Shown here: in pieces, positions 19,961 to 20,314 of the stretch | How positions within the stretch are numbered: the first letter of the stretch is position 1 | Layout: every line of letters starts with the position of its first letter | Assembly: GCF_046105845.1 (NCBI RefSeq) | Contig: NZ_CP151004.1 | DNA from: Escherichia coli | Lineage (GTDB): Bacteria; Pseudomonadota; Gammaproteobacteria; Enterobacterales; Enterobacteriaceae | Strand: one strand, 5' to 3' | DNA: 64,000 nt | Program-made: the position numbers and the translations under genes | Notes under the pieces: generated by a model | Told to the model about the DNA's origin: nothing | The model's database searches: none | The model's input: the letters and a program-made list of their open reading frames with translations, nothing else

Positions 19961-19972
19961 TAGCGTCAAAAA

Positions 19973-20000
19973 AGCCCCGGCAAGTTTTATTGTCGGGGCT
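19973..20000. other. Hairpin (agccccg ... cggggct) just after glcB; A-run upstream, no strong U-run downstream
   Basis: Inverted repeat read directly. Confidence 0.35.
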
Positions 20001-20314
20001 ATGATAGTAACTGCGGTAGTACATTTATCCCGGAAATAACCGGAGCGATTATCAGGGTTTAACAATATTAAATACCCGTAGCGCATTACTAGCGGGCCTA
20101 AAACAACAATATGGACATCTTAACGATACTCTGCGCCTGCGTGTGCGGAACAGAAACCCTTACCCGATATACTTGTTATGCCAGAGGTAGCAATTGCGTT
20201 AGCAGCGTACTGTTGCTGTAAAGTATAACGCCTATATTTTACAGTTCAGTCCTCTTTTGCTTATTACAACCTTAAGTATATCAAGCATATAAAGATAATA
20301 AGAGACTGAACAAT

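Follow-up and report, generated by a model that had tools for sequence, protein, structure and literature searches.

The long spacer between glcB and glcA of Escherichia coli as a probable cis-acting element of the glc operon mRNA

Intercistronic stabilizer hairpins set differential expression within operons, as in malEFG with its repetitive extragenic palindromic (REP) sequence and in puf of Rhodobacter, and structured 5′ leaders that occlude the Shine-Dalgarno (SD) sequence are known as translational operators, RNA thermometers and leaders activated by small RNAs (sRNAs). Stem-loops that protect the 3′ ends of Rho-terminated or processed transcripts have also been described (Dar and Sorek 2018, as cited in PMC7815308), as have bidirectional intrinsic terminators (Ju et al. 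2019, as cited in PMC7815308). Here we analyzed the spacer between glcB and glcA in the glycolate operon of Escherichia coli, within a stretch of 64,000 nucleotides of contig NZ_CP151004.1 (assembly GCF_046105845.1), which is called the window below and supplies all positions unless another record is named. With moderate confidence, we propose that this spacer acts in cis within the glcDEFGBA mRNA to uncouple the permease gene (glcA) from the enzyme genes. Such an intra-operon uncoupling element is of an ordinary kind. The proposal draws on a hairpin behind glcB (HP1), at which an RNA 3′ end has been mapped, and on a conserved and putatively structured region in front of glcA; the same locus is catalogued as that of C0719, a candidate sRNA on the opposite strand.

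The glycolate locus lies on the plus strand of the window, whose best database match was E. coli 042, in the order glcD (13573–15072), glcE, glcF, glcG, glcB, glcA and sslE/yghJ. The open reading frame (ORF) of glcB (17789–19960), whose RefSeq equivalents in K-12 and NC101 are malate synthase G, closes with TAA at 19958–19960, and glcA, coding for glycolate permease, runs from its ATG at 20315 to 21997. The spacer between them (19961–20314) is 354 bp long. An earlier note on this DNA had singled it out as a gap in an otherwise compact operon, and its coordinates were exact: all remaining glc junctions were at most 21 nt (a 1-nt overlap for glcD/glcE, 10 nt for glcE-glcF, 4 nt for glcF-glcG and 21 nt for glcG-glcB).

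HP1, detected both as an inverted repeat and by folding, occupies 19973–20000 on the plus strand, and its stem starts 13 nt past the glcB stop codon. It has an 11-bp stem including one G·U pair, with arms AGCCCCGGCAA (19973–19983) and TTGTCGGGGCT (19990–20000), and a 6-nt loop, GTTTTA (19984–19989). In a 52-nt context the plus strand folded at −21.9 kcal/mol versus −9.7 ± 2.4 kcal/mol for shuffled sequences (z = −5.06), and none of 200 shuffles was as good. The sequence directly 3′ of the stem is AUGAUAGU, which is no U-tract, so that the hairpin has the position and the tail that the earlier note had given it. A consensus terminator scan of 19800–20450 called no terminator on either strand. 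In the published Term-seq data for strain MG1655, an RNA 3′ end was listed at position 3121590 of NC_000913.3 on the (−) strand (Adams et al. 2021, PMC7815308, Supplementary file 1); it had a mean of 47,630 reads and was classed as ‘primary’ for glcB and as ‘antisense’ to C0719. This end of glcB-containing K-12 transcripts corresponds to plus-strand position 20004, which is 4 nt beyond the last paired base of HP1 and 44 nt beyond the glcB stop codon, and an RNA ending there finishes with UUGUCGGGGCUAUGA. The K-12 sequence was identical to that of the window across HP1. We conclude that glc transcripts end at HP1, through weak termination or trimming back to the hairpin. The earlier suggestion of partial termination or processing at this hairpin was thus supported by the K-12 data, and the operon does not yield only a single uninterrupted glcDEFGBA transcript, given that an internal transcript 3′ end exists.

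On the plus strand, HP1 joins a G+C-rich stem-loop to a mapped 3′ end but lacks the U-tract that an intrinsic terminator would have. The features of a protective hairpin were all found: like the 3′-protecting and stabilizer hairpins described elsewhere, it is a G+C-rich stable stem without a U-tract that lies close behind a stop codon inside an operon, with the 3′ end a few nucleotides past the stem, and, as with those hairpins, the downstream cistron would be expected to be less abundant. Unlike the stabilizer REP sequences, HP1 is single-copy and has a U-tract on the other strand, and a role of Rho and exonucleases here is putative. A repeat search placed the HP1/spacer sequence at a median of one place per E. 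coli genome and at two at the highest, which ruled out a REP sequence or a bacterial interspersed mosaic element, for which many copies per genome are expected. In our proposal, HP1 would define and protect the 3′ end of glcDEFGB transcripts at 20004. Because HP1 lacks a U-tract, this end most likely results from a stop or cut farther downstream followed by trimming: polymerase would stop there (by Rho-dependent termination) or RNase E would cut there, and 3′-to-5′ exonucleases would then trim the RNA back to the stem. A Rho loading site as such was considered and set aside, the composition being only weakly C-over-G. The alternative origin would be weak hairpin-only termination. By either origin, HP1 would protect the glcDEFGB mRNA and reduce the share of transcripts that carry glcA.

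The spacer was found at ≥95% identity in 4,543 of 5,426 complete E. coli genomes, as a single copy. The other 883 genomes had no match to window positions 19661–20614, the glcB 3′ end, the spacer and the glcA 5′ end all being gone; the C0719 family has been scored as lost in some E. coli (phylogroup E) and Shigella lineages, and these absences fit that report. Among nine Escherichia sequences (eight diverse E. coli and E. albertii), 24 of the 354 spacer sites were variable (6.8%) versus 139 of 499 third codon positions in glcB (27.9%) and 195 of 560 in glcA (34.8%), over the flanking 1.5 kb. Within E. coli only, the values were 3.1% versus 11.8% and 15.5%. Variation in the spacer was therefore 4–5 times lower than at flanking third codon positions. 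It was also unevenly distributed, with 17 of the 24 variable sites in 19967–20110, six in 20111–20209 and none in the 105 nt of 20210–20314. At the population level, identity of ≥99% over 20210–20314 was seen in 4,352 of 4,424 matching E. coli genomes (98.4%), over 20005–20109 in 3,998 of 4,541 (88%), and over a 105-nt stretch of glcA coding sequence in 938 of 3,786 (24.8%). On these variable sites and identities, 20005–20110 forms a less constrained middle of the spacer, and the conserved glcA-proximal region on the plus strand, which we propose as a structured leader from variation, alignments and folding, spans 20111–20314. We conclude that the spacer is real, strongly conserved and regulatory.

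Beyond Escherichia, GlcA orthologues were rare: they were found in Raoultella and some Klebsiella (89% identity) and in one Citrobacter freundii (88%), followed by Pseudomonas at about 80%. Gene order was kept in all enteric cases, with glcB-glcA spacers of 353 bp in E. albertii, 415 bp in C. freundii and 398 bp in Klebsiella/Raoultella. Spacer homology among the genera was patchy and consisted of HP1 with its neighboring A-run, the block ATGGACATCTTAA at which the proposed leader starts (20111), CTGCGC..GTGTGC.GA, CTCTTACC, ATATA, and a ribosome-binding site (RBS) block, AATAATnAGAGAnTG, which contains the glcA SD sequence AAGAGA (20300–20305, plus strand, identified from the alignments). A similar RBS-proximal block (AACAAGAGGCU / AAAAGAGGCU) occurred upstream of the glcA homologue in Pseudomonas, and in two Pseudomonas genomes (comparison loci L023 and L026) glcB was followed by a glcA homologue (78–79% identity), the spacers being about 240 and 115 bp long. 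For the C-terminal half of GlcB, the matches listed were from Variovorax, Pseudomonas and similar organisms, none of them enteric, with identities of at most 73%. A metagenome pattern scan for non-Escherichia glcA starts gave no matches. These relationships suggest that the glcB-glcA block may have moved horizontally, with the nearest non-enteric relatives of GlcA and GlcB in Pseudomonas and Variovorax. One might then take the spacer for a neutral scar, a hairpin left over when horizontal transfer joined glcA to glcB and without further function. Both the location of those relatives (for GlcB, among the matches listed) and the G+C content of the spacer, 41% versus 53–54% in the flanking genes, speak for such an origin, but a scar would not be expected to vary 4–5 times less than third codon positions, to include 105 invariant nucleotides, or to have homologues of similar length in three genera. 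The low diversity of the spacer excludes this explanation, to which we give next to no credence.

The opposite strand of HP1 has a different anatomy. An A6 run, seen by direct reading of the sequence, abuts the 5′ side of the stem (19968–19973) and, read on the minus strand, supplies a U6 tract behind the hairpin; neither this run nor the terminator anatomy of the hairpin on that strand was mentioned in the earlier note. The minus strand reads GCCCCGaCAA...UUGcCGGGGC followed by UUUUUUGA, that is, a hairpin and UUUUUU with one A·C mismatch, and it folded at −15.2 kcal/mol (z = −3.64). This is the canonical shape of an intrinsic terminator with one stem mismatch, and it was because of that mismatch that the consensus scan missed it. 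The stem-loop and the U-tract are thus present on the minus strand, and no in vivo 3′ end above the read threshold is listed for it in three Term-seq conditions. HP1 resembles intrinsic terminators as a G+C-rich hairpin beside a homopolymer run, with hairpin and U6 on the minus strand, but differs from the bidirectional ones in being one-sided, with no U-tract on the operon strand and with the A·C mismatch on the minus strand in E. coli. We propose that HP1 and U6 would keep antisense transcripts that originate on the AT-rich glcA side from extending into glcB.

Comparison across lineages addressed the question of which strand HP1 serves. The A-run was 5–7 nt long in Escherichia, and C. freundii and Klebsiella/Raoultella had an A-run at the equivalent position. 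The plus-strand hairpin ranged from −20.1 to −25.9 kcal/mol in E. coli, E. albertii, C. freundii, Klebsiella and Raoultella, and the minus-strand hairpin from −13.7 to −24.3 kcal/mol across the same lineages. The latter was weakest in E. coli (−15.2 kcal/mol), C. freundii (−16.8 kcal/mol) and Raoultella BIGb0138 (−13.7 kcal/mol), because C-to-T substitutions on the plus strand give G·U pairs there and A·C mismatches on the minus strand. The tally of HP1 substitutions by strand favors the plus strand, and is suggestive, not significant. In Klebsiella, the minus-strand stem is perfect and is followed by UUUUUAU, a textbook terminator. We conclude that HP1 is used on both strands. Hairpins of the plus strand were also found in spacers of other genera. 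In Pseudomonas, a strong hairpin without a U-tract lay right behind the glcB stop codon (L023, 5058–5115, and L026, 5052–5115); that of L023 folded at −38.7 kcal/mol (z = −6.5), and that of L026 is REP-like. Klebsiella/Raoultella had, about 20 nt past HP1, a plus-strand hairpin that resembles a terminator and has a TTTTAT tail (L084, 3694–3709, and L089, 3698–3713), and C. freundii had one with a T-rich tail inside an insertion in the spacer (L086, 3815–3834). These lineage-specific terminator-like hairpins of Klebsiella/Raoultella and C. freundii were absent from the E. coli spacer; they hint at a transcriptional barrier and, like the Pseudomonas hairpins, speak for the proposed role of the spacer.

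C0719 is said to have been predicted as an sRNA from array data by Tjaden and colleagues in 2002, between yghK/glcA and glcB. In the window, its Rfam family RF00117 matched the minus strand at 20236–20015 (cmscan, 298.4 bits, E = 6e-79, model positions 1–222), far above the gathering score of 50, and E. albertii scored 272.7 bits. The earlier note had not identified the spacer as this catalogued locus. In an RNA-seq study, C0719 was placed at U00096.2 3119380–3119601 (+), with a length of 222 nt (PMC4676190), in agreement with the full-length model match in the window. Its abundance in that study was 45.7 units versus thousands for established sRNAs, and it rose 3.5–7.4 fold in transition and stationary phase. 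Cells overexpressing it were unaltered in biofilm and motility screens (PMC4606813), and a transposon insertion at the C0719 site reduced group II intron retrohoming, an effect left unexplained (PMC3636086). The NC_000913.3 record has no feature annotated in the spacer.

These data allow a reading in which C0719 is a functional minus-strand sRNA gene, starting at about 20236 and running toward glcB, ended by HP1 and U6 at about 19966, and serving either as a trans-acting RNA or as an antisense RNA that controls the glcB-glcA junction, with the plus-strand 3′ end as a by-product. The full-length match (298 bits), the low-level RNA-seq detection with its growth-phase rise, the retrohoming effect, the minus-strand hairpin with U6 (and its perfect form in Klebsiella), the A-run kept across enteric lineages and the invariance of the sequence upstream of the C0719 5′ end all agree with such a gene. 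On the other hand, the 222-nt RNA had a folding z of +0.10 and showed no sign of conserved structure, the minus-strand consensus fold was weak (−13.6 kcal/mol), the annotated 5′ end (20236) bisects the predicted hairpin HP2 described below, and the scan found no promoter consensus upstream. The family model matched in Escherichia only: although the spacers of C. freundii (L086) and Klebsiella/Raoultella (L084 and L089) are homologous, RF00117 gave no match there up to E = 10. Expression was very low and rose in phases in which the sense glc mRNA appears to be expressed, so that strand bleed-through is possible. In three Term-seq conditions, no 3′ end above the read threshold was listed on the C0719 strand at this locus (PMC7815308), nor did the overexpression screens, the current genome record or the HP1 substitutions, which weaken the minus-strand stem in three lineages, favor an sRNA gene. 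Thus, the spacer shares its locus, a full-length model match and published coordinates with C0719, but, unlike that entry, has its structure signal, wobble-compatible substitutions and sole mapped RNA end on the operon strand; the C0719 family is without covariation support and is confined to Escherichia, whereas the spacer extends further. A functional C0719 gene therefore appears rather unlikely. In our proposal, the weak C0719 signal would be the antisense transcript stopped at HP1 and not necessarily a trans-acting regulator.

Folding of the spacer likewise pointed to the operon strand. The whole spacer was more structured than shuffles on the plus strand (z = −3.5), and 20111–20335 (225 nt) had a z of −2.36 on the plus strand and −0.82 on the minus strand. 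The RNAalifold consensus reached −22.98 kcal/mol on the plus strand versus −13.6 kcal/mol for the reverse complement; 89% of alignment cells were paired in the consensus structure versus 30–51% with the partners slid, a level reached by 2 of 500 shuffles. Three plus-strand elements were predicted by this consensus. The first is a small conserved hairpin at 20129–20150 (UCUGCGCC / GUGUGCGGA), with 8 pairs and 87.5% of cells paired. The second is a putative anti-SD sequence at 20157–20160, CCCU (CUCU in other genera), which would pair with AGAG at 20301–20304; this helix has 4 pairs with 91.7% of cells paired, and is near-invariant and hence uninformative on covariation. The third is a long-range helix between 20167–20187 (5′ arm) and 20271–20290 (3′ arm), with 18 pairs, 90.7% of cells paired and compensatory changes at 2 pairs. 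A perfect 9-nt inverted repeat, GATATACTT / AAGTATATC, at 20166–20174 and 20274–20282 (99 nt apart) overlaps this helix with a shift of 8 nt and gives E. coli two alternative pairing registers.

Folds of the E. coli sequence contained two further plus-strand hairpins. HP2 (20216–20244, inverted repeat I2) is an A/U-rich hairpin with a 12-bp stem that occurred in minimum-energy folds, and HP3 (20244–20312, inverted repeat I5) is an E. coli-specific stem-loop present in the minimum-energy and centroid folds, the outer stem of which (20244–20258 with 20299–20312) covers the glcA SD sequence (z = −2.67 for 20205–20335). In C. freundii and Raoultella/Klebsiella, another 7-bp stem, CCAGGUA with UACCUGG (glcA codons 2–4), can enclose the SD sequence and the AUG. 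What recurs among these predicted folds is that the start region of glcA lies within structure, with the exact pairing tentative. We propose that read-through transcripts would bear a conserved leader of about 200 nt (20111–20314), as conservation and consensus folding suggest, and that its folds would put the glcA RBS in or beside helices, by anti-SD/SD pairing, the long-range helix and, in E. coli, HP3. With the RBS so placed, glcA translation would be set or regulated separately. The region resembles known SD-occluding leaders in that its predicted helices involve or abut the SD sequence (20157–20160 with 20301–20304, and HP3) and in that spacer conservation exceeds that of coding DNA, but differs from them in that the SD-covering helices are not the same in Escherichia and in other genera. 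A bolder version, in which 20111–20314 is an undescribed operon-strand cis-regulatory RNA through which a signal (a metabolite, temperature, an sRNA or ribosome traffic from glcB) would control translation of the permease, and C0719 is its wrong-strand shadow, seems unlikely to us. In an Rfam search, no cis-regulatory family matched the spacer.

The conserved region might instead contain an internal promoter, possibly activator-dependent or served by an alternative sigma factor, which would make glcA expression independent of the glcD promoter and would be compatible with HP1 as a barrier. The extremely strong conservation of the last 105 nt before glcA would suit a promoter, as would the AT-rich composition with the −10-like hexamers TATAAA (20288–20293) and GATAAT (20294–20299). 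The plus-strand terminator-like hairpins in the relatives' spacers would seem to need re-initiation, and LldR overproduction had a smaller effect on glcA mRNA than on glcD (PMC10272880). However, a sigma-70 promoter scan of 19800–20450 (−35/−10 elements with 16–18 nt spacing) found no site on either strand, where 1.2 are expected by chance; matches in the relatives' spacers were few, equal to the shuffle expectation and not at aligned positions; and a transcription start set by the −10-like hexamers would fall within the SD sequence and give a leader of only about 15 nt. The literature also treats glcDEFGBA as a single polycistronic unit transcribed from the glcD promoter under GlcC (PMC3265435). 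Inspection by eye of the spacer for sigma-70, sigma-54, cyclic AMP receptor protein (CRP) and integration host factor (IHF) sites revealed nothing convincing or conserved. A 2001 study by Núñez and colleagues is reported to agree with the description of glcDEFGBA as a single unit. The internal glcA promoter put forward in the earlier note thus found no support in these scans, and its existence remains doubtful to us.

Another explanation would place the cause of the invariance in an array of DNA-level sites for nucleoid or regulatory proteins (H-NS, IHF or a GntR-type regulator) in a segment of up to 72% A+T, and not in RNA structure. A+T content is indeed 68–72% across 20213–20316, constraint on every nucleotide is unusual for a leader, and palindromic ATACCnGGTAT-like motifs occur twice in C. 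freundii and Raoultella. Yet these palindromes have decayed in E. coli, the species with the strongest constraint, there was no match to a known motif, and the compensatory as well as the wobble changes are consistent with plus-strand RNA pairing. As a transcription-factor site, the ATACCnGGTAT palindromes were rejected: they lose register in E. coli and are better explained as arms of RNA helices. We regard protein sites as the cause as quite improbable.

Several observations nevertheless weigh against the proposed cis-acting role. The 3′ end at 3121590 was listed in just one of three growth conditions (PMC7815308); from the file layout and the published per-condition counts, we infer that this condition was LB at an OD600 of about 2.0, and glcD-internal 3′ ends were present in the sheet of that condition, so the glc operon was expressed in it. 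A Term-seq end leaves termination and processing undistinguished, and with C/G no higher than about 1.7 in any 78-nt window, the spacer has no clear resemblance to a rut site. At HP1, the E. albertii substitution at 19990, in the loop-proximal pair, is compatible with the minus strand only, and the persistence of the A-run in all enteric lineages would argue for selection on a terminator function of the minus strand. As for the leader, covariation is thin, with compensatory change at 4 pairs and effectively three lineages, the consensus structure was derived on the same strand that it then favors, and the E. coli minimum-energy fold consists of HP2 and HP3 without the long-range helix. Finally, invariance of 105 nt at the level of single bases exceeds the expected needs of a simple leader and could reflect DNA-level sites or an antisense promoter.

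Small proteins were also considered and rejected. A 36-aa plus-strand ORF (20111–20221) is truncated in Klebsiella and absent from C. freundii, being either cut short or without a start codon in other genera, and a 49-aa minus-strand ORF is frameshifted through variation in A-run length. The minus-strand ORFs of Klebsiella/Raoultella and C. freundii had no family match, and their frame-0 protein alignment was no better than that of other frames.

Some genomes carried altered versions of the locus. About 119 retained the glcB-proximal 105 nt without the glcA-proximal 105 nt. In strain PEC408 (L003, NZ_CM168008.1, 4001–5174), an IS5-like ISKpn26 element lies 47 nt into the spacer, just behind the hairpin; no glcA or further spacer sequence remains, and the neighbor is a type II Zorya defence system. 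In O26:H11 strain FWSEC0001 (L096, NZ_CP031922.1, from about 4039), the spacer is kept to about window position 20198 and is followed by a traT fragment, cptA and an IS3 element, glcA being lost. In FDAARGOS_1256 (L091, NZ_CP069451.1, 2156–3838), the spacer is intact, and the annotation gives glcA as a pseudogene interrupted by an internal stop. A 3782-nt ENA contig (L088) encodes at 54–2361 a permease that is 89% identical to GlcA and has an LldP-like N-terminus, behind a DUF2810 (yibL-like) gene; this is the lldP context, and at 1.9x coverage the contig may be either chimeric or the trace of a true glcA/lldP recombination. It was discarded as a comparison locus on account of its non-homologous upstream region, its lldP-like context and the possible chimerism of the contig. 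Downstream of glcA, a 12-bp hairpin at 22005–22035 (AAGCCGGATGAT...ATCATCCGGCTT), 8 nt past the stop codon, was called terminator-like by the scan and is likely the end of the operon; the K-12 Term-seq listing has no 3′ end for glcA (Adams et al. 2021, PMC7815308).

Databases and supplementary tables already contain the locus and its 3′ end. The assignment of the signals to strands, the preservation of the spacer in several genera and the near-absence of variation in the 105 nt before glcA appear to be new. General principles are unchanged by these results, as hairpin-defined internal mRNA ends and structured leaders are already well known. At the C0719 locus, the best-supported signals, namely the mapped RNA end, the wobble-compatible substitutions and the consensus structure, are on the operon strand, and therefore this 20-year-old entry may be a by-product and not a regulator. 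Overproduction of a membrane permease is costly, and the spacer may explain how cytoplasmic enzymes and a membrane permease are produced in unequal amounts from one operon.

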